The translations under genes and the position numbers were made by a program. Under the pieces are notes generated by a model. That model saw only the letters and a list, made by a program, of their open reading frames with translations. It was not told the DNA's origin and searched no databases. Shown one piece after another: positions 2,561-39,146 of a stretch of 64,000 nucleotides of DNA; positions within the stretch are counted from its first letter, which is position 1; each line of letters opens with the position of its first letter. The DNA comes from an uncultured Planctomycetia bacterium (lineage in GTDB: Bacteria > Planctomycetota > MHYJ01 > WSZJ01 > CAZWCX01), in the NCBI GenBank assembly GCA_964632945.1, contig CAZWCX010000005.1:9305-73304 (forward strand), written 5' to 3'.

Positions 2561-3004
2561 CTACCTCTTGGCGGGAGGAAGGCGCGTCCCGAGAGGCGGT
2601 TCCGCCAGCAGCGTCAGCCCCGGGTCCAATTCCGCGGCCAGGTCGAGCAGCAGGTAGGTGTGACAGGCGCGATCGGGAGTGCGGTACGGGCACATGCACA
2701 TCAGGTAGACGTCGCCGGAGCGCGCTTCCCGGACCAGGACCCGCAGCGCATCGAGCGCGCCGGGGCGCGCGCGAAACTCCTCCCGGTAGCGCCGGCGATA
2801 GTCGATCCGGCGGCACGCCTCCGCATGCGCCTCCCCCGAGGACACCCCGGCTGCGCGGAGGCGCAGTTTTTCTTCGTGGAAGTCGCGCAGGAGTTCTTCC
2901 GAGGGCGCCAGGATCTTGAGTCCGCGGGTCCCGCGGCGCATGACCGGGACCCTCCGGGCGCCCGGCGGCGTCGGGGCGAAGCGGGTGATTCGACCCAGTC
3001 CCAT
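2561..3004 (-). CDS. DUF488-family-like protein
   Basis: LAPSEELL...YRRRYREE...VYLMCMC....ACHTYLL pattern, recalled as typical of DUF488. Confidence 0.65.
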   Translation of the reverse strand: MGLGRITRFAPTPPGARRVPVMRRGTRGLKILAPSEELLRDFHEEKLRLRAAGVSSGEAHAEACRRIDYRRRYREEFRARPGALDALRVLVREARSGDVYLMCMCPYRTPDRACHTYLLLDLAAELDPGLTLLAEPPLGTRLPPAKR

Positions 3005-3123
3005 GACGGTCCTCGCGACAGCCAGAGGGCATTGTGCCGGACCGTGACCGGTCCGTCAATCCGCGACGCCCGGACCCGGAAATTCGTTTCCGATCGAACC
3101 GCGGATGTGGGAAAATTCACGCC

Positions 3124-6100
3124 ATGTCCAGCACGCCTCCCGTCGACCCCCCCCAGGCCGAGACGCGTGCGCCCGGCGCGACCAGAACGGGCCCGCCTTC
3201 CGGCACAGATTTTCCGTTCGGCCGATTCCGGTTGCTTGAACGACTGGGCGCCGGGGGCATGGGGATCGTCCATCGTGCCTGGGATCCGAAACTCGGACGG
3301 CACGTCGCGCTCAAGCGCCTGCGCGTCGACGGGGACTCCGGCATCGAAGTCGCCCGTTTCCTGCGGGAGGCGCGGGTGGCGGCGCGGCTGCGTCATCCCG
3401 GCATCGTCCAGGTTCACGACTCCCTGGAGGTCGACGGTGCGCCGGCGATCGTCATGGAGTGGGTGCAAGGCTGCACCCTGGAGACGTGGCTGGCCGGGAA
3501 TCCGGCCGTGGGGGAGGAATCCCTGCGCCGGCGCGTCGGGTTGCTGCTCGGGATTGCCGAGGCCGTGGGGCACGCTCATGGGGAGGGGGTGATCCACCGG
3601 GATCTGAAGCCGGCGAACGTGCTGATCGACGATCAGGGTCGGCCGCGCGTTGCGGATTTCGGGTTGGCGAGGCGCCTCCCTTTCGCCGGGGGGATGGAGT
3701 CCGCGCCCGCGGCGGCCTTGACCGAGGCCGCCACGGTCCTGGGGACTCCCGCGTACATGAGCCCGGAGCAGGCGCGGGGCGAGTCCGACGGCATCGGTCC
3801 CCGCTCCGACGTCTGGTCCCTCGGCGTGATGCTCTACGAGATGATCACGGGACGGCCGCCGTTCCAACGGGAGAACGGTTGGCGTACGCTCGAAGCCGTG
3901 GCACGGGAGGAGGTCACGCCCCCGTCCGCGACGACCCCCCGGGTATCGCCCCCGCTCGAGGCGATTTGCCTGCGCGCCCTGCACCGGGACCCGGAGCGGC
4001 GCTACAGGGACGGCAAAGCGTTCGCCGACGATCTGCGTCGTTGGCTTGTGGGGGAGTCGGTGCAGGCGGGGCCGGGGGGGCGCGAGTACCGGGCGCGCGT
4101 GTGGATCCAGACCCGACGTCCTGCGCTGGCGGGCGCCCTGGTCGTCGCGATGGCGATCGTCGGCCTGACGGTCTGGGGAATCGCAGGTTCCGGACGACGG
4201 ATGCAGGAGGCGCTCCAGGTCGAAGCGGCGGAGTCGGTGACGTCCTTCGAGGACCGCGTACGTTCGATCGAGATGACCGTCGACGCACGCCGCGACCTTG
4301 CGCGACAGCCGCTGGCGCTGCTCGATCGCTGGATCGCCGAGGGCCCGGACGCCGGGGTCGGCCATGCGTGGCGCGGGCAGGTGCGCCTTCTGCTGGGCGA
4401 CGAAGCGGGCGCCGCGGCCGACTTCGAGCAGGCCTGCCGCCGCTCGCCGGAACGCTGGGAGCCGTGGTGGGTGCGGGGATTCTGGCGCATGGAGCAGTAC
4501 CTGTCGCTCCGCGGTCTGTCTGCATTCCGGATGACGGAGACGGGCGTCGAATCCGACCCCGCGCGCGCGGAGAGCGGCGAGGAAGCCGGCCTGCGGGTCT
4601 CCGCCCTGGCCGACCTCGGGCGCATGGTCCGCTGCTCCGCTGCCGGCGCCGCGGGGAACGACGAGCGGTTGAAGATGGCGCAGGCGCTGGCCGCCCTCGG
4701 TCAGGGGGATGCGGCGGGCTACAGGGAGGCGCTCACACGGCTCGAAGGGTTGAATCTGCCGCGGTCGCACAGGATTCGCGGTCGGGCACTGCATCAGTTG
4801 GGTCGATTCGAAGAGGCGGAAGAAGCCTACACCCGGGTGCTGGAGCGATGGCCCGAGGATGCGGACGCCTGGCGGTCCCGCGCCGTCAGCCGGAATGTTG
4901 CCGGGGTCCTGGCGGCGCAACGCGGGACCGAGCCGCAGGCCCTCCTGGAACGCGCGGAGGCCGACTTCGGCGAGGCCATCCGGTGCGAGCCCGACGAGTC
5001 GGCGGCGTATCTGGGTCGCGCCAACCTCCGGACCTGGCGGGTCAAGGTCCGAATCGACCGCGCGGAAGATCCGACCGGGGCGTTGCAGGAAGCGGAGGAA
5101 GATCTCTTCGAGGCGGGACGCCGGGGAGCCCCGGAGTGGCGCGTGGTCCGGCTGCAAGGTCAGCTTCTGCTCCTCGCGGCCGAATGGGACCGAATCCAGC
5201 ACCGCTCGGCTCGCACCCACATCGAAAGGGCGATCGAGGAGTTCGAGCGCGCGGCGCGGAGCGGTCCCGAGCCCGGGATCGACCGCCTCCTCCAGTCGCG
5301 TGCCTACGTGGCGCTGGCCGCCGATGAGATCGCGGCGCGGCAGGATCCACGCGCGACGTTCGACAAGGCCCTGGCCGCCGTCGACGAAGCCTGCGCGCTC
5401 CTCCCGACCCGCGGCGAGCCCTTGGCGGAACGCGGCGAGATGCGCTTCTCGATGGCGATCGCCGCGGTCCTGTTCGGGCGCGATCCGGTCCCCTTCCTGG
5501 GGCCGGCGATGGAGGATCTCGCCGCCGCGCTGAAGATCCGGCCCGGAGCCGTAAAGACGCTGCGCATCCGCGCCCGTGCGCGCGCCCTTCGCGCCCGGTA
5601 CGAGGACCGGGAACGCGCCGACCTCCACCGCGAAGTCCGCGCCAGCCTGGAAGACCTGGATGCCGTCCTCGCGGTGCTGCCTTCGGATGCCGATCTCCTG
5701 CAGGATCGGGCGCAGATGTGTCTGCGGCTCGGCGAACTCGAAGCATCGTTCGGCGGGGATCCGCGTCCGCACTACCGGTCTGGCGTAACCGCCATCGAGC
5801 GGTTGGAAGGGGCTCCGGTCCGCCAGCCCGGACCGCTGCTCGCGACGCTCGGAGCGCTGCGCTGGCGGCTTGCGCAGGCGGAAGCGGTGCGAGGGGGCGA
5901 TCCCGGCGCTGGATGGACCCGGGCCGTGGCGGACTTGCTGACGGCCCGCGGCCGTTTCGGGTTCGAGACCGGTCACACGCTGGGCCGACTTTACCGGACC
6001 CTCGGTCGATGGGGCGAGGCGGCAGGGGAGTTCGAGCGATTCGGCGGGACCCGGGGCGGATCCCCTGAAGTGGGGCGGGTCCTGGCGGAGGAGTGCCGCG

Positions 6101-6531
6101 CGCTCGACTGGGCCGGCGGCCGGGGATGGGCGGCAGCCTGGCGGCGCGGGGACGAGGCCTTGGCCGGGGGGGACCCCGCGGCGGCCTGGCGGGAGTACGA
6201 GACGGCCGCCGCCGGTCTCTTCGAAGACGTCGGCGGGCTTCCGGAAGCGGAACGGGATCCGCGCCAACGGCCCACGCCGCTGCGGGTCGCCTCGACGGCC
6301 GTGTCGCTTGGCCTGGCTCGCGCCGCAGCGGTGCTGGCCCACGGGGGCGAGGCTTCCGGCGAACCCGCCCGGGCGTCTGATCCGGCCGCACGAGAGCAAT
6401 GGCTCGATCGGATGCTCGAGCATTTGCAGGATGCCTGCGAGCAGGGCGCCGAGATCGCGATGTGGGGCGACGATCCGGTGTTCGCGCCGTTCGCGGAGGA
6501 CCCCCGGTTCCGAAATCTGCGGAGGCGCTGA
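3124..6531 (+). CDS. Ser/Thr protein kinase (Hanks type) with TM segment and TPR-like C-terminus
   Basis: GAGGMG, VALK, HRDLKPANVL, DFG and GTPAYMSPEQ motifs; TM LAGALVVAMAIVGLTVWGIA; helical repeats. Start placed at ATG 3124. Confidence 0.93.
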   Translation: MSSTPPVDPPQAETRAPGATRTGPPSGTDFPFGRFRLLERLGAGGMGIVHRAWDPKLGRHVALKRLRVDGDSGIEVARFLREARVAARLRHPGIVQVHDSLEVDGAPAIVMEWVQGCTLETWLAGNPAVGEESLRRRVGLLLGIAEAVGHAHGEGVIHRDLKPANVLIDDQGRPRVADFGLARRLPFAGGMESAPAAALTEAATVLGTPAYMSPEQARGESDGIGPRSDVWSLGVMLYEMITGRPPFQRENGWRTLEAVAREEVTPPSATTPRVSPPLEAICLRALHRDPERRYRDGKAFADDLRRWLVGESVQAGPGGREYRARVWIQTRRPALAGALVVAMAIVGLTVWGIAGSGRRMQEALQVEAAESVTSFEDRVRSIEMTVDARRDLARQPLALLDRWIAEGPDAGVGHAWRGQVRLLLGDEAGAAADFEQACRRSPERWEPWWVRGFWRMEQYLSLRGLSAFRMTETGVESDPARAESGEEAGLRVSALADLGRMVRCSAAGAAGNDERLKMAQALAALGQGDAAGYREALTRLEGLNLPRSHRIRGRALHQLGRFEEAEEAYTRVLERWPEDADAWRSRAVSRNVAGVLAAQRGTEPQALLERAEADFGEAIRCEPDESAAYLGRANLRTWRVKVRIDRAEDPTGALQEAEEDLFEAGRRGAPEWRVVRLQGQLLLLAAEWDRIQHRSARTHIERAIEEFERAARSGPEPGIDRLLQSRAYVALAADEIAARQDPRATFDKALAAVDEACALLPTRGEPLAERGEMRFSMAIAAVLFGRDPVPFLGPAMEDLAAALKIRPGAVKTLRIRARARALRARYEDRERADLHREVRASLEDLDAVLAVLPSDADLLQDRAQMCLRLGELEASFGGDPRPHYRSGVTAIERLEGAPVRQPGPLLATLGALRWRLAQAEAVRGGDPGAGWTRAVADLLTARGRFGFETGHTLGRLYRTLGRWGEAAGEFERFGGTRGGSPEVGRVLAEECRALDWAGGRGWAAAWRRGDEALAGGDPAAAWREYETAAAGLFEDVGGLPEAERDPRQRPTPLRVASTAVSLGLARAAAVLAHGGEASGEPARASDPAAREQWLDRMLEHLQDACEQGAEIAMWGDDPVFAPFAEDPRFRNLRRR

Positions 6532-13474: not shown

Positions 13475-13966
13475 CTAGTGGGTGCTCTTCGCCGCGTCGA
13501 GCGTCGCCCAATTCGCGTCGCTCGCCTGCTTGCTCGCGTCGTTCGCGGCGGGCGCCGGGCCCTTCGTCGTGCGGGTCACCGCCTGCGCAGCCTGCTGGGC
13601 GAGCAACCGCGCCTGCACTCGGGATTGCGCGGACGCCTGTCCGGCCAGTCGGGCCGCCAGGCTCGCCTGCGTGCGACCGATCTCCTCGACGTTCAGCGTC
13701 GAACTTCCGAGATTCGCCGACACGTTCGCGGTGGCGTCCGCCGCCGTGCTGATGCCGCCGCTCGGCACCGGAACGGGCGCATCCACCGGCCCCGCCACCG
13801 CGGGAGCGATCATCATTGCCGAAGCGGCCATCTGCATCTGTTGGGGAGGATTCGGATCCGGGCACCCCGGGTCCACGCCCGGATTTCAGGTAGGCAGGGC
13901 GAGGGCGCCACAGGGGACGAAGGTCAGGAGCGCGAGCAGCGCGAGGGAACCAATCGCCGTCTTCAT
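13475..13966 (-). CDS. Secreted Pro/Ala-rich protein with an in-frame TGA at codon 27 (candidate UGA-recoded or selenoprotein, 163 aa)
   Basis: SD GGGAGGT, ATG 13966, signal peptide MKTAIGSLALLALLTFVPCGALA, then LPT, TGA (13886..13888), then NPGVDPGCPDP continuing in frame into ORF 13475..13876. Confidence 0.7.
13856..13885 (-). other. SECIS-like hairpin immediately 3' of the in-frame TGA
   Basis: A-ATCCGGGC-GTGGACCCGGGGT-GCCCGGAT, an 8-bp perfect stem. An alternative upper stem GGACC-CGG-GGT(G)CC starts 11 nt after the TGA. Folded by eye only. Confidence 0.45.
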
Positions 13967-35104: not shown

Positions 35105-35268
35105 ATTACGTAACCGGTTGTGGAGTCTCCCATGGAACCAACCCGCCCCGGTTCGGTGGCGGCCCGCAGGCAGGGAATCGGGCCGACCGGGACACGGGGA
35201 TCGCGTGACGCCGCCCGCGCGAGGGGGGCTCCCAGGAACGCGCCCAAAGATTCCGAATTGGTAATAGT

Positions 35269-35286
35269 CGTTACTGCGGCGCAACA
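35269..35286 (+). promoter_or_regulatory. Candidate enhancer (UAS) for a sigma54 activator, copy 1
   Basis: CGT-N12-ACA (CGTTACTGCGGCGCAACA), 110 bp upstream of the -24 GG. Matches the site at 36467. Confidence 0.55.
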
Positions 35287-35377
35287 GATAGCCGGGATCG
35301 ATTTTGGGTGGAAATTGGTACGTTTCATTAAGTGCTTATAGATTAATGATTTATTAATTTCACGCTTCAATCGTCTT

Positions 35378-35395
35378 GGGTATGTCGATTGCTAA
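35378..35395 (+). promoter_or_regulatory. sigma54 -24/-12 promoter, copy 1
   Basis: GGGTATG-TCGA-TTGCTAA with GG-N10-GC spacing; AT-rich tract upstream. Confidence 0.65.
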
Positions 35396-35498
35396 CACCC
35401 CTCCCATCGGATTGACAACGAGACGACGAACGATACGGAGACAGAGAGAGTGAATCCCCGCAAGGGGGTCGAGTTGGTTGCGTTGTTGGAGTAGGAAT

Positions 35499-35768
35499 AT
35501 GAAGCACCTGTTCACACTGGCCGCAGTGCTGGTGCTGGTCGGGACGCTCTTCGTGGGCGTGCCTGCCAGCGTGTTCGGGTGACCCCCGCCTGGGGCCCCG
35601 CCTCCCCCGGACATTACGCCTGGCCCGGGTCCGGTTCCGGATCCGCCGGGGGGAGATGATGATGGTGGTGGTGACGACGATGACGGTGGTGGCGACGACG
35701 ACGACGGCGGCCCGGAGACGCAGGTTGATGACGGGCCCGACGCTGGCGAAGAGCGCTATCTGATGTAA
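35499..35768 (+). CDS. Small secreted Pro/Gly/Asp-rich peptide with an in-frame TGA at codon 28, copy 1 (89 aa if read through)
   Basis: SD GGAGTAGGA, MKHLFTLAAVLVLVGTLFVGVPASVFG, TGA (35580..35582), then PPPGAPPPPDITPGPGPVPDPPGGDDDGGGDDDDGGGDDDDGGPETQVDDGPDAGEERYLM-TAA. Missed by the ORF track. Confidence 0.7.
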
Positions 35769-35790
35769 TCGTTCCTCACTTCAGAACATC

Positions 35791-35832
35791 CTCGAGGGCT
35801 CGCGACACCCGTCGCGGGCCTTCGAGTGTTTT
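35791..35832 (+). terminator. Intrinsic terminator after copy 1
   Basis: 16-bp stem CTCGAGGGCTCGCGAC-ACCC-GTCGCGGGCCTTCGAG followed by TGTTTT. Confidence 0.7.
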
Positions 35833-36466
35833 CGGGGTCTTTACAGCCTCTGCACTTGCACGTCCTCGACGGCCGCCCGTCAACCCGCGCGTTGCGGGAG
35901 CTACTGCCGGGCCGGAATCGTGCCGGGCGTCCCCGACGCCGCTCACACCGGAGGCCATGGATCCTGGCTCGCCCCCCGGCTCATCTCGGCTTGGCTGGGA
36001 TCTTTGTAGGGAAGGCTCCGGGAGCAGGCGCGGCGACACAAATGCGGCTCCCGTTGGCCCGGCGTCAGGCCGGCCCGGGTCCAGGCGCACGGAGACCCGC
36101 ACCCGCGCGCGAGCGGGGGGCGGTCGCGGCCGTTCGTGGTGCTCGCCCCTCGGCTCAGGACCCGCGCGCGATCGGGACGCGGTGGCGAGGCGGTCCATGC
36201 CCCGGGCGTGGGCCAAGGACTCCGTCCGAATCGAGCGACCGTCGGCCGCCTTGCCACTTCGATGGATCTTCTTAAAGTGGGCGTTCATGTAGTAGCGTGA
36301 ATGCGAGAAGTGCGGGGCGTGCGCACCCAGGTCCGGGGTGTTCCCCTGCGGTCGAGTTTCCGCCCCGACGCGATCCAGTACCCACCGCCCGTGCCCGAGA
36401 CCCGTCCGATCTCGGTCGGGCCCTCGCCTGAATCGCTACCCTGAGGAAACAGTCATTGGAGTTCCC

Positions 36467-36484
36467 TGTTACCCGTGCGGAACA
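36467..36484 (+). promoter_or_regulatory. Candidate enhancer (UAS) for a sigma54 activator, copy 2
   Basis: TGT-N12-ACA (TGTTACCCGTGCGGAACA), 112 bp upstream of the -24 GG. Confidence 0.55.
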
Positions 36485-36577
36485 AATCGAAAGTCGTGAT
36501 CCAGCGCTGAATTCCAAGTATGGTTTTAAAGCGTTTTATAATAACATGTTGAGAAACAAATAAGAATTCTAGTCCTG

Positions 36578-36595
36578 CGGTACGGTCGTTGCTAA
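36578..36595 (+). promoter_or_regulatory. sigma54 -24/-12 promoter, copy 2
   Basis: CGGTACG-GTCG-TTGCTAA versus consensus TGGCACG-N4-TTGCW; AT-rich tract upstream. Confidence 0.7.
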
Positions 36596-36688
36596 ATGCA
36601 CCCTCGTCCAACACGAACGACGCCGAACGAAACCAACGAAGTAGTGACGGGGCCGCGAGGCCCTGAAGGACCTGTGAAGGAGAGAAGC

Positions 36689-36958
36689 ATGAAGCACCTG
36701 TTCACACTGGCCGCAGTGCTGGTGCTGGTCGGGACGCTCTTCGTGGGCGTGCCTGCCAGCGTGTTCGGGTGACCCCCGCCTGGGGCCCCGCCTCCCCCGG
36801 ACATTACGCCTGGCCCGGGTCCGGTTCCGGATCCGCCGGGGGGAGATGATGATGGTGGTGGTGACGACGATGACGGTGGTGGCGACGACGACGACGGCGG
36901 CCCGGAGACGCAGGTTGATGACGGGCCCGACGCTGGCGAAGAGCGCTATCTGATGTAA
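36689..36958 (+). CDS. Small secreted Pro/Gly/Asp-rich peptide with an in-frame TGA at codon 28, copy 2
   Basis: Identical by eye to 35499..35768. SD AAGGAG. TGA at 36770..36772. Confidence 0.7.
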
Positions 36959-36985
36959 TCTCCTCAACACAGTGGAACGTTCCAG

Positions 36986-37020
36986 AGGGGGCTTGCGATT
37001 GCGATCGCAAGCCCCCTTGT
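36986..37020 (+). terminator. Terminator-like hairpin after copy 2
   Basis: 14-bp stem AGGGGGCTTGCGAT-TGCG-ATCGCAAGCCCCCT followed by TGT. Confidence 0.65.
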
Positions 37021-37199: not shown

Positions 37200-39146
37200 A
37201 TGGAGTTGATCCTGAAGAAGGTCAGGGCCATCCAGCGGTGGCTCTTCCTCGTTCGCTTTGGCGAGAACTCGGTACGCCTTCTCTTCTATGCTCTGTGCAT
37301 CTTCTCGCTCCTGGTCCTGCTGGATCGCCTGATCTTCCTCAATGTCGATCTCTACCAGGGCATGGTGATCATGACCGGCACCGCTCTCCTCGGCGCGGCG
37401 GTCTGGGTAGCTCTGTCCCGGATCACCCTCCTGCGTGCCGCCATGGTCGCGGACGAGCAGCTCGGCCTGAAAGAGCGGCTTTCGAGCGCCTTGTCCGTCG
37501 GTCAAGCCGGCACTCCCATGGAGCAGGCCCTGATCCTCGATACCGCCCAGAAGGCGCAGAAGGTGGTCGTCACGCGCACCGCGTCGTTCCGGTTCCCGCG
37601 GGAGTCGCGGTTCTTCTACATCCCCGCGGCCCTCATCGTCCTCTCCCTCATGGTCCTCCCGCCGCTCGACCTCCTGGGTCGGCTCGAGGCCAAGACCATC
37701 AGCGAAGCCAAGAAGGAAGAGGCCAAGAAGGACTCGCTCAAGGTGGAGAAGCGCACCGAGAAGATCAAGAAGCGCCTGGAGGAAAAGAGTCTCCCCGAAC
37801 TCGAGGGCGTGATCAAGAAGCTGGAAGCCCTCTCGGAGGATCTGAAGGCACAGAAGACCGACAAGGTCGACGCAATGGCCAAGCTCTCGAACCTCTCCGA
37901 TGAATTGAAGGATCGTCGCGAGCAGCTCGGGGAGAAGATGGCGGTCAAGCGCGACCTGGAGTCTCTCTCCGGTGAAGAAGGCGAGATGGGCAAACTCGCC
38001 GAGGCCGTCAAGTCGGGGGATTGGGAAGAGGCCAGAGAGCAATTGAAAAACCTCGAGGAGAAGCTCAACAGCGACTCCCTCACGCCCGAGGAGAAGCAGA
38101 AACTCCAGCGGCAGCTTCAGCAACTCGCGAAGTCCCTCAAGAATGATCGCAATCTGGAGCGGCTCGGGAAGTCGCTCGAGAAGCTCGCCGAGCGCATGGA
38201 GAAGGTGCAGGACAAGCTGGGCGAGGAGGATCGCAACTACGCCAGCAAGGCATTCGAAGAACTCGATGAGCAGATGAAGACTCTCGAGGATCTGTCGGAA
38301 GAGGAACTGGAGGAGTTGGAGAAGACCCTCGACGAGCTGGAACAGGCCAAGGACGACCTGACCGAGGAAAACGGCGAGGAAGGCCAGCAGGGCCAAAATG
38401 GCCAGGACGGACAGCAGGGTCAGGAAGGCCAGGAAGGCCAAGAGGGACAGGAAGGTCAGGAAGGCCAGGAAGGCCAGAAGCAGGGCCAGCAGGGCCAGAA
38501 GCAGGGGCAGCAGGGTCAGAAGCAGGGGCAACAGGGTCAGAAAGGCCAACAAGGACAGAAGGGCCAGGAAGGCCAGAAGAAGGGCGGCGACCAGGAGTGC
38601 ATCAATTGCAAGAAGAAGATGAGCCAATCCGGCGGAACCTGAAGTAGCGGCCAGGGCAAGAAGCCCGGGACCTGAAAGGTCCTCGGGGCCTACGGGCTAG
38701 GCCGATCGAAAGCGAACCAGGGTCAAGGCGGCAAGGGCAGCCAGAGCGGCAAGGGTCTGGGATCCGGGGGTCCGGGAACGGGCAAGGGCGGCAAGGTGCC
38801 GGAGAGCGGCAATCGCAATGTCCGATTCGACAAGGAGAAGATCAAGGGGCTCCTGGACAGCAAGGGGGAGATCCTGGGCGGCATCTTCGTAAAGGGCCAG
38901 GCCACCAAGGGCGAGGCCAAGCAGGAGTACGTCGAGGCCTACAAGGCCGAGATTCAGGAATCCACCGACGCGCTCACCAAGGAAGACATTCCTCTCGGTT
39001 ACAAGCAATTCGTCTCGACCTACTTTGACTCGATCGATGGCGCCGGGGAGGATGACTCCGCGGCCGACGAGGGCGCTACACCTCCGTCCGGCGGTTCCCC
39101 CGGGGAGGGGACCAAGCCGACCGAGGGGCAAGGGGGCGGGAAGTAA
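37200..39146 (+). CDS. Membrane-anchored coiled-coil protein of the kind found with MoxR/vWA operons, with two in-frame TGAs (648 aa if read through)
   Basis: ORFs 37200..38642 and 38796..39146 share a frame, interrupted only by TGA 38640..38642 and 38673..38675. N-terminal TMs, coiled coil, GQ repeats, CINC-x10-TGA-x10-TGA, Gly-rich linker, C-terminal ALTKEDIPLGYKQFVSTYFDSI. Confidence 0.75.
38382..38579 (+). repeat. Gly-Gln low-complexity tandem repeats (9- and 21-nt units)
   Basis: GQQGQNGQDGQQGQEGQEGQEGQEGQEGQKQGQQGQKQGQQGQKQGQQGQK... Confidence 0.85.
38654..38666 (+). other. SECIS-like hairpin 11 nt after TGA 38640
   Basis: GGGC-AAGAA-GCCC, extendable by CC/GG past a bulged A. A second hairpin CCCG-GGACC-TGAAA-GGTCC-T-CGGG (38664..38687) holds the next TGA in its loop. 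Confidence 0.4.
38687..38703 (+). other. SECIS-like 17-nt hairpin exactly 11 nt after TGA 38673
   Basis: GGCCTA-CGGGC-TAGGCC, a perfect 6-bp stem with a G-containing loop. Uses codons CTA and CGA, which look rare in this GC-rich context. Confidence 0.6.

Follow-up and report, generated by a model that had tools for sequence, protein, structure and literature searches.

The locus examined lies in the window, the 64,000-nucleotide stretch of contig CAZWCX010000005.1 from an uncultured Planctomycetia bacterium that was analyzed here, and holds two identical small genes on the forward strand. Copy 1 has an ATG at 35499, then 27 codons (MKHLFTLAAVLVLVGTLFVGVPASVFG), a TGA at 35580-35582, then 61 sense codons (PPPGAPPPPDITPGPGPVPDPPGGDDDGGGDDDDGGGDDDDGGPETQVDDGPDAGEERYLM) and a TAA at 35766-35768. 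The repeat unit, 35499-35770 and 36689-36960, is 272 nt long with 100% identity, and it starts exactly at the ATG and ends 2 nt after the TAA. The flanking sequences can be aligned but are strongly diverged; however, both copies have kept a Shine-Dalgarno sequence. The features of the locus are as follows.

35499-35768 (+), copy 1 of the recoded CDS (27 codons, TGA, 61 codons, TAA)
36689-36958 (+), copy 2 of the recoded CDS, 100% identical to copy 1
35580-35582 (+), in-frame TGA (codon 28) of copy 1, context GGG-TGA-CCC
36770-36772 (+), in-frame TGA of copy 2
35577-35599 (+), hairpin HP1, GGGUGACCCC[CGCCU]GGGGCCCC, with the UGA inside the stem between the Gly27 GGG and Gly32 GGG codons; the same hairpin in copy 2 is at 36767-36789
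35626-35645 (+), hairpin HP2, CGGGUCCG[GUUC]CGGAUCCG, -12.6 kcal/mol, with its apical loop 51 nt after the UGA; the same hairpin in copy 2 is at 36816-36835
35377-35395 (+), sigma54-type -24/-12 promoter of copy 1 (GGGTAT-N5-TTGCTAA)
36578-36595 (+), sigma54-type -24/-12 promoter of copy 2 (CGGTAC-N5-TTGCTAA)
35260-35274 (+), possible activator site, function inferred (GGTAA-N5-TTAC, partly palindromic), about 105 nt upstream of the copy 1 promoter; the counterpart for copy 2 is at 36458-36473
35488-35491 (+), Shine-Dalgarno GGAG of copy 1; copy 2 has AAGGAG at 36677-36682
35791-35834 (+), terminator-like GC hairpin plus T-run after copy 1
36986-37017 (+), terminator-like perfect 14-bp hairpin after copy 2

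The first-pass annotation had described a 27-residue signal peptide ending in SVFG, an in-frame TGA and 61 further codons rich in proline and aspartate, and this observation was confirmed. An open frame of 61 codons after a stop is not remarkable in itself; at 68% G+C, we calculate from base composition that it would occur about 27% of the time. What lifts the observation above chance is the comparison with relatives and the RNA data described below.

Conservation of the TGA and of the frame behind it

Syntenic relatives were found in three metagenomes (loci L081, L082, and L083), in which the ABC-F gene is 78% identical in DNA and the downstream gene is 74% identical to those of the window. 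The TGA was at the same codon in L081 and L082/L083, and also in variant contigs from other runs (X28 and X40/X42), so that it was kept in every homologue in which the codon could be read. After the TGA, there were 16 synonymous and 13 non-synonymous codon differences between window and relative, and differences by codon position were 5/10/26 (chi-square p=1.5e-4). The dN/dS was 0.19 after the TGA and 0.08 for codons 29-52, and all indels were multiples of three. No ATG, GTG, or TTG is present in frame after the TGA. The +1 frame after the TGA is open and has high GC3, which follows from the first codon letters of Pro, Gly, and Asp; however, when read in the other two frames, only 0/29 and 3/25 of the differing codons were synonymous, and translation in the +1 or +2 frame was rejected. 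These data show that the frame after the TGA is under purifying selection as protein.

RNA contigs from two studies carried the TGA unedited, with 0 differences over 35470-35786, and had a depth of 48-1418 compared to 2-10 for neighboring genes, or about 100-fold higher. A related strain (runs X3/X4) showed no change in DNA across 36689-36811, the part of the copy 2 CDS that was covered. RNA editing and sequencing error at the TGA were therefore rejected. The RNA is about 300 nt long; raw-read RNA runs X36 and X37 held essentially nothing, and transcript ends were not obtained from them. Reassignment of TGA throughout the genome was likewise rejected because many well-supported genes in the window end in TGA, including three consecutive genes in one frame.

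All four upstream regions examined had a sigma54-type promoter. Compared to the canonical TGGCAC-N5-TTGCW, the four regions had GGGTAT-N5-TTGCT, CGGTAC-N5-TTGCT, TGGTAC-N5-TTGCT, and TGGCGC-N5-TTGCT; GG-N10-GC with TTGCTAA was conserved in all four, as was the GTTAC block of the possible activator site.

Searches for homologues

Searches of 5.8 billion protein clusters and 1.84 billion representatives returned no significant hits, only low-complexity hits or none, and no homologue with Cys or any other sense codon at the TGA position. A DNA pattern search of metagenomes that admitted TGC and TGT as well as TGA returned only TGA. Pfam, NCBIfam, and Rfam searches found nothing for the gene. The loci around the 80 best ABC-F relatives among genome contigs were examined; the best was 70% identical, and none carried the peptide gene. 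A scan of viral contigs was empty. Of the exact-protein look-ups, one found only a short Logan contig and the other two found nothing.

Hairpins near the TGA

The bacterial SECIS model used here requires a 3-9 nt loop with G in its first two positions, a 4-16 bp stem, and an MFE of -7.5 kcal/mol or lower, at 16-37 nt from the UGA (PMC13188914). No hairpin fits this model in the 16-37 nt range. HP2, a conserved 7-8 bp hairpin, meets the loop, stem, and energy constraints but lies at 51 nt, outside the published range. Only 25 of 1126 TGA triplets in the window have such a hairpin at 38-60 nt. HP2 is conserved in L081/L082, where GAT to GAC turns a G.U pair into G-C. Codons 43-47 showed no synonymous variation in any variant seen, such that synonymous variation was found in 0/5 codons within HP2 compared to 9/14 codons between the TGA and HP2 (Fisher p=0.03). 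However, the fold of the region was no more stable than shuffled sequence (z=+0.87), the spacer structure was not the same in the window and in the relatives, and covariation is thin because only a handful of fairly close relatives are available.

HP1 was recovered in both the MFE fold and the consensus fold. Its variable sites, 35588 and 35591, fall in the loop, and a change of GCC to GCT gives a G.U pair.

The neighboring gene, 37200-39146, keeps both of its in-frame TGAs in relatives, with SECIS-like hairpins that conform to the model. Searches for sense-codon homologues of the two other TGA-containing proteins found none.

Interpretation of the recoded codon

Our best explanation, which we hold with no more than moderate confidence, is that each copy is a real gene, transcribed from a sigma54-type promoter and translated from its own Shine-Dalgarno sequence and ATG, in which ribosomes decode UGA28 in frame, most likely as selenocysteine delivered by SelB. 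The product would have a 27-residue Sec-pathway signal peptide cut after SVFG, either by signal peptidase I or by signal peptidase II after lipidation, and in either case the recoded residue would become residue 1 of a roughly 62-residue, proline-rich, and strongly acidic exported peptide (net charge about -18 at pH 7 and pI 4.05 for a Cys-substituted model). The mature peptide has a single Arg (R86) and no Lys. The proposed recoding signal is HP2, which has the stem, loop size, and G-U loop start of a bacterial SECIS. In this view, the GC-rich spacer can fold once the first ~11 nt are inside the ribosome, which would bring the hairpin to the mRNA entrance. The analysis itself establishes the gene, its conservation, translation of frame 0 past the TGA, the high RNA level, the promoter motif, and the hairpin. 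That the residue is Sec, that the hairpin is its signal, where the peptide is cleaved, whether the +1 residue is acylated, and what the peptide does (a surface or periplasmic polyanion with one reactive selenol, possibly binding cations or metals) are inferences from sequence. Against selenocysteine, in addition to the position of HP2, no Cys-containing homologue was found in the public data searched, whereas nearly all known selenoproteins have one (PMC13188914), and the mature peptide has no partner Cys or redox motif.

The interpretation offered in the first-pass annotation was partly supported. Its proposal that the full read-through CDS is the functional unit and its failure to find a canonical SECIS agree with our results. 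It also proposed that FG-U resembles a lipobox or gives a free N-terminal selenol; SVFG|U fits both a lipobox-like and a signal peptidase I-like cleavage context in all homologues, although Phe at -2 is outside the strict lipobox pattern. Its inference that the residue is Sec or Cys was not shown. Its suggestion of a RiPP-like precursor was not supported. The neighbors are an ABC-F protein, a coiled-coil membrane protein, a solute-binding protein with ABC transporter genes, an NHL-repeat protein, and a vWA protein, and the relative has a Laminin_G_3-like protein beside the gene; Pfam scans of neighboring ORFs in the window and of the large ORF beside the gene in the syntenic locus returned no match that looks like a peptide-modifying enzyme. 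A metal-binding or mineral-templating role of the poly-Asp tail, also suggested there, remains conjecture.

More than one other scenario is possible. The strongest alternative, although we consider it less likely than selenocysteine, is a programmed leaky stop, in which UGA-C after a Gly codon is read at low frequency by a near-cognate tRNA (Trp, Cys, or Arg), most ribosomes make only the 27-residue hydrophobic peptide, and very high transcription compensates for the minority that make the exported acidic peptide. UGA-C is the weakest UGA context in E. coli, the GGG-TGA-C context is invariant in all homologues, and the lack of a SECIS at the canonical distance, the RNA depth, and the selection after the TGA are all compatible with this scenario. 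However, if a standard residue were wanted, some homologue should carry TGG, TGC, or TGT, and none was found among billions of predicted proteins; a leaky stop also does not explain the conserved HP2 or its invariant spacing, and the same lineage keeps other in-frame TGAs that do have SECIS-like hairpins. A short translational bypass is doubtful. Peptidyl-tRNA-Gly could take off from GGG27 and land on GGG32, 15 nt on and in the same frame, assisted by HP1, giving a product that lacks residues 28-31. The matched GGG codons flanking the UGA are invariant in all variants although GGG makes up only 29% of Gly codons here, and the conserved HP1 pairs the take-off and landing regions. In contrast, the two variable sites between the GGG codons are both third positions of Pro codons, as expected if those codons are translated (though the chance probability is about 0.1), known efficient bypass needs a nascent-peptide signal and a longer gap, and a hop does not explain HP2.

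It is similarly unlikely that translation ends at the TGA to give a 27-residue hydrophobic micro-protein (a membrane peptide or type-I-toxin-like), with the remaining 190 nt as a structured 3' region or the whole as a dual-function small RNA. The short ORF has a good Shine-Dalgarno sequence and a hydrophobic helix, the RNA is abundant, and the genes lie in tandem copies; however, the region after the TGA evolves like a protein in frame 0 and ends in a conserved aromatic-x-Met-stop, and an RNA-only constraint would not give this pattern. Least likely is a gene recently inactivated by a nonsense mutation. The in-frame stop and the lack of annotated homologues would be consistent with decay, but the same TGA is shared by lineages that differ at 26% of post-TGA sites while staying under purifying selection, both tandem copies with their promoters and Shine-Dalgarno sequences are kept, and the genes are transcribed at a very high level. 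A true degenerate copy exists in L081 and looks quite different.

Comparison with known systems

As in bacterial selenoprotein genes such as E. coli fdhF, where UGA is recoded by SelB and a SECIS hairpin within the CDS, the in-frame TGA is conserved across homologues with protein similarity running through it, the context is UGA-C, the UGA itself lies in a stem, and a downstream hairpin has a small loop beginning with G-U. The gene differs in the distance of that hairpin, in the lack of Cys homologues and a redox motif, and in the position of the recoded residue directly after the signal peptide. Two of the three review criteria for new selenoprotein families found by truncation at TGA (Haft, bioRxiv 10.1101/2022.07.06.499078) are satisfied, namely a universal TGA at the site and strong similarity running through it; however, fewer than ten clear examples are in hand, and unlike the families in that paper this one has no non-selenoprotein (Cys) members.

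Compared to bacterial lipoproteins of the Lgt/LspA pathway, the n-region has K2/H3 and is followed by a hydrophobic h-region, V-F-G before the recoded residue at position 28, and a Pro-rich disordered tether such as many lipoproteins have. SVFG is conserved in all homologues. Phe at -2 is atypical and outside the strict pattern [LVI][ASTVI][GAS]-C, the residue that would be lipidated is encoded by TGA rather than a Cys codon, and the site equally fits signal peptidase I. In programmed read-through, such as phage Qbeta coat/A1, a UGA in a weak context also separates a short product from an extended one, but here the gene is chromosomal, the short product is only a signal peptide, and there are conserved downstream hairpins. 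Phage T4 gene 60 shares a Gly take-off codon followed directly by a stop, both inside a hairpin, with a matching Gly codon downstream. The gap here would be 12 nt rather than 50 nt, no nascent-peptide signal is known, and the landing codon is in the same hairpin.

A bolder reading, which we consider unlikely but which the data do not rule out, is that selenocysteine sits exactly where the lipidated cysteine of a lipoprotein sits. The product would then be the first seleno-lipoprotein (Se-diacylglyceryl anchor) or, if cut by signal peptidase I, an exported peptide with a free N-terminal selenol, and insertion would be driven by a SECIS hairpin acting from 51 nt through a folded spacer. The first UGA of the neighboring gene has the same arrangement, with a SECIS-like loop 50 nt away. 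A literature search for Sec in a lipobox found nothing relevant, and such a residue would raise a direct question of whether Lgt can acylate a selenol.

If the residue is Sec, this is a selenoprotein family with none of the usual hallmarks, having no Cys relatives, no redox motif, and a SECIS outside the accepted distance. Both standard ways of finding selenoproteins, SECIS models and Cys/Sec pairs, miss it, so selenoproteomes of poorly studied phyla may be under-counted. If the residue is not Sec, this would be a conserved chromosomal case of programmed UGA read-through or hopping in a bacterium, which is also rare. Whichever mechanism applies, the gene is not seen by current gene callers, yet in reactor metatranscriptomes it is far more highly transcribed than any other gene in the 19 kb around it.

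Sequence of the two gene copies

The first-pass annotation had described a secreted acidic peptide gene in which a signal peptide is followed by TGA, an in-frame tail and TAA, and this observation is confirmed, on evidence much stronger than could be seen from the sequence alone. Copy 1 encodes MKHLFTLAAVLVLVGTLFVGVPASVFG, then TGA, then 61 codons giving PPPGAPPPPDITPGPGPVPDPPGGDDDGGGDDDDGGGDDDDGGPETQVDDGPDAGEERYLM. A second, 100% identical copy lies downstream, and the 272-nt repeat begins exactly at the ATG and ends 2 nt after the TAA, whereas the flanks are alignable but far diverged. The features are as follows.

35499-35768: copy 1, from ATG at 35499 to TAA at 35766-35768
35580-35582: in-frame TGA of copy 1
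35499-35770 and 36689-36960: the 272-nt identical repeat
35377-35395 and 36578-36595: sigma54-type -24/-12 elements of copies 1 and 2
35260-35274 and 36458-36473: upstream GTTAC-containing blocks
35771-36688: 918-nt spacer between the copies

Each copy has its own Shine-Dalgarno sequence (GGAG for copy 1 and AAGGAG for copy 2), a sigma54-type element about 105 nt upstream, and a terminator-like hairpin about 25 nt after the TAA. The spacer is very GC-rich, has only implausible ORFs, and is not conserved with the spacer of the relatives described below. A related strain (runs X3/X4) shows SNPs and a 2-nt deletion in the spacer but none in the part of the CDS that was covered. The window is 68% G+C, and we calculated from base composition that a 61-codon open stretch after a stop would occur about 27% of the time; the bare observation therefore proves nothing on its own.

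TGA is not reassigned in this organism. Many genes with a clear coding signature end in TGA, several of these were matched to Pfam families, and three consecutive genes in a single frame are separated only by TGA. The TGA in this gene is therefore a local event.

Homologues and conservation of the TGA

We searched for annotated relatives. With Cys in place of the TGA, a word-indexed search of 5.8 billion protein clusters gave only low-complexity Asp/Gly hits, and a full HMMER scan of 1.84 billion representatives gave nothing at E <= 1e-3. Pfam, NCBIfam and Rfam gave nothing. The adjacent ABC-F gene has no relative closer than 70% in the genome contigs searched; the best hits are Planctomycetota MAGs, and none of those 80 loci carries the peptide gene.

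Relatives do exist at the DNA and RNA level, and they keep the TGA. Alignment of RNA contigs from other environments to the gene showed divergent versions. A contig from an aquifer metatranscriptome (X28) covers 35500-35689 with 16 differences and an in-frame 21-nt insertion, and continues as PESQVDDGP in frame 0. A soil metatranscriptome (X29) has two further variant contigs. Variants from groundwater and freshwater-sediment runs (X40, X42, X45) also align across the codon; for X40 and one X42 contig the TGA lies far from the alignment ends and no difference is listed there, whereas some shorter contigs, in which the TGA lies within about 15 nt of an alignment end, were not counted as evidence. 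The GAT/GAC/GGT repeat at 35656-35710 and 36846-36900 attracts many unrelated contigs at 80% likeness from any metagenome, so k-mer shares below about 0.2 for this gene are often low-complexity noise.

A degenerate pattern around the TGA, allowing TGA, TGC or TGT at the recoded codon, was scanned against metagenome contigs and returned three loci, all with TGA. These loci are syntenic relatives, in which the ABC-F gene is about 78% identical in DNA and the downstream gene 74%. Their CDS reads M[KR]HLYTLAAVL..VSVFG-TGA-PPPGAPPPPDIDPGPGPVPDP[PI]GGGDDGGDDDDGGPEIDTGDDRQDGEDDLYPM-stop. One of them, L081, holds the 3' end of one copy, a decayed remnant, and a second intact copy on a single contig; the tandem arrangement is therefore shared with the window. 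The decayed third copy lies between the two peptide-gene copies on the reverse strand, about 380-560 nt from the start of the reverse-complemented locus, and has a recognisable signal-peptide end, GTGTTCGGG followed by GCCCCC (the TGA is lost), a truncated tail, and its own terminator-like hairpin. In the relative L083, a 1073-residue protein with a weak Laminin_G_3 match (2932-6153, minus strand) lies between the ABC-F gene and the peptide gene; the window has no counterpart there.

Coding selection after the TGA

We compared the window with L081 after the TGA to determine whether the frame evolves as a translated sequence.

Table. Comparison of the window and L081 after the TGA, except where stated.
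Codons compared: 53
Synonymous / non-synonymous codon differences: 16 / 13
Differences by codon position (1st/2nd/3rd): 5 / 10 / 26 (chi-square p = 1.5e-4)
dS, dN, dN/dS: 0.96, 0.18, 0.19
dN/dS, codons 29-52 only: 0.08
dN/dS before the TGA: 0.27
Synonymous among the differing codons, read in the +1 and +2 frames: 0/29 and 3/25

All indels are multiples of three (24 nt, 3 nt, the 21-nt insertion in X28 and a 12-nt insertion in X42). No ATG, GTG or TTG lies in frame between the TGA and the last codon, so independent initiation is not available. Both lineages carry the TGA and have since diverged at 26% of post-TGA sites under purifying selection; a recent nonsense mutation is therefore contradicted. 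Absence of a conserved frame after the TGA in homologues had been named beforehand as grounds for rejecting the first-pass proposal, and the frame was found to be conserved.

Transcription

RNA contigs from two independent reactor studies match 35470-35786 with no differences, and the TGA is therefore present in the RNA and is not edited. Contig depth for this gene is 239-1418, compared to 2-10 for neighbouring genes in the same runs, while DNA depth is flat at 4-8. All four upstream regions compared (two in the window and two in relatives), which are otherwise diverged, keep GG-N10-GC with TTGCTAA, the sigma54 arrangement, and share a GTTAC block about 105 nt further upstream. No sigma54 activator gene was seen among the neighbouring ORFs scanned with Pfam. 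In run X6 a sequencing-adapter sequence abuts position 35482, and the contig from run X8 also starts there, 17 nt before the ATG. This could be a processed 5' end or a second start site rather than the sigma54 start expected near 35405, although contig ends at repeats make this uncertain.

Candidate recoding signals

The published bacterial SECIS model requires an apical loop of 3-9 nt with G in one of its first two positions, an upper stem of 4-16 bp, an MFE <= -7.5 kcal/mol, and 16-37 nt between the UGA and the loop (PMC13188914). No hairpin downstream of this TGA meets the model in the 16-37 nt range, in agreement with the first-pass annotation, which had found no canonical SECIS. The region as a whole folds no better than shuffled sequence (z = +0.87). 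However, two local structures are conserved.

35577-35599: hairpin HP1, with the UGA in its stem
35626-35645: hairpin HP2, CGGGUCCG-GUUC-CGGAUCCG

HP1 holds the UGA between the invariant codons GGG27 and GGG32, and its variable sites fall in the loop or give a G.U pair. HP2 has 8 bp and -12.6 kcal/mol and meets the loop, stem and energy constraints, but its loop lies 51 nt from the UGA. Only 25 of 1126 TGA triplets in the window (2.2%) have a hairpin this good at 38-60 nt. In the relatives, GAT to GAC turns a G.U pair of HP2 into G-C. Its codons include GGT and GTT, which make up 6% and 4% of Gly and Val codons here. Codons 43-47 show no synonymous change in any variant seen, against 9 of the 14 codons between the TGA and HP2 (Fisher p = 0.03), and no indel occurs between the TGA and HP2 in any homologue. 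With the first 10-11 nt occupied by the ribosome, the spacer could fold and place the base of HP2 at the mRNA entrance; this is conjecture, as the predicted spacer fold differs between the window and the relatives.

Other in-frame TGAs in the window

Two further genes in the window have in-frame TGAs.

37200-39146, plus strand: coiled-coil membrane protein with in-frame TGAs at 38640 and 38673
13966-13478, minus strand: signal-peptide protein with a TGA at 13886-13888

The coiled-coil protein is the next gene and continues through both TGAs (CINCKKK..GGT-U-..PGT-U-KVLG). Both are kept in L083 and L081, the surrounding roughly 50 nt are almost invariant, and one RNA contig spans both. No full-length homologue with sense codons was found. 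The two sites have model-conforming hairpins at 30-31 nt and 17 nt, and the hairpin of the second site also lies 50 nt from the first UGA, the same distance as in the peptide gene. In the minus-strand gene the TGA lies four residues after a signal-peptide-like ALA motif and is followed by a Pro-rich stretch and a Cys seven residues on, with a CCGGG-GUG-CCCGG hairpin 20 nt after the TGA. No protein homologues were found. This context favours Sec in the peptide gene, but meeting the simple hairpin model is weak evidence in this GC-rich DNA, as 144 of 1126 TGA triplets meet it by chance at 16-37 nt.

Interpretation of the recoded codon

Taken together, these data show a conserved, tandemly duplicated, very highly transcribed gene family with a sigma54-type promoter arrangement, in which the TGA is read through in frame. 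That the residue is Sec, that HP2 is its signal, where the signal peptide is cut and what the product does are inferred from sequence alone. The first-pass annotation had proposed that the mature peptide starts with Sec or Cys, in a lipobox-like context or with a free N-terminal selenol, and that its tail could bind metals or template a mineral or that it could be a RiPP-like precursor; this interpretation is partly supported.

Sec with a displaced SECIS-like hairpin is the best-supported reading, although we consider it only about as likely as not. UGA recoding and selenoproteins are already known, but the spacing here is outside the published range, no Cys homologue was found whereas nearly all selenoproteins have one (PMC13188914), and there is no partner Cys. 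Alternatively, a leaky UGA-C stop could be read by a near-cognate tRNA. This would explain the missing canonical SECIS and the very high transcription, but it would explain neither why no relative carries a sense codon nor why HP2 is conserved, and we regard it as possible but unlikely. A short hop from GGG27 to GGG32 within HP1 is formally possible but very unlikely. Termination at the TGA, giving only a micro-protein with the remainder acting as RNA, is similarly improbable, and a pseudogene is a remote prospect; both are contradicted by the selection pattern.

Predicted product

Whichever residue is inserted, it follows the conserved SVFG. With Cys or Sec there, V-F-G-C/U after a Lys-bearing n-region and a hydrophobic core resembles a lipobox, although Phe at -2 is atypical, and the -3 Val and -1 Gly also suit signal peptidase I. 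A Pro-rich stretch directly after the first residue is what lipoprotein tethers look like. We found no paper linking Sec and a lipobox. Pfam scans of nearby ORFs gave no match that looks like a peptide-modifying enzyme, so a RiPP reading is not supported. By inference only, the product could be an envelope or surface polyanion with one reactive selenol, perhaps binding cations or metals, switched on by a sigma54 activator. With either predicted cleavage, residue 28 would become the N-terminus of a roughly 62-residue peptide with 15 Pro, 15 Gly, 16 Asp and 3 Glu, which, modelled with Cys at residue 28, has a net charge of about -18 and a pI of 4.05.
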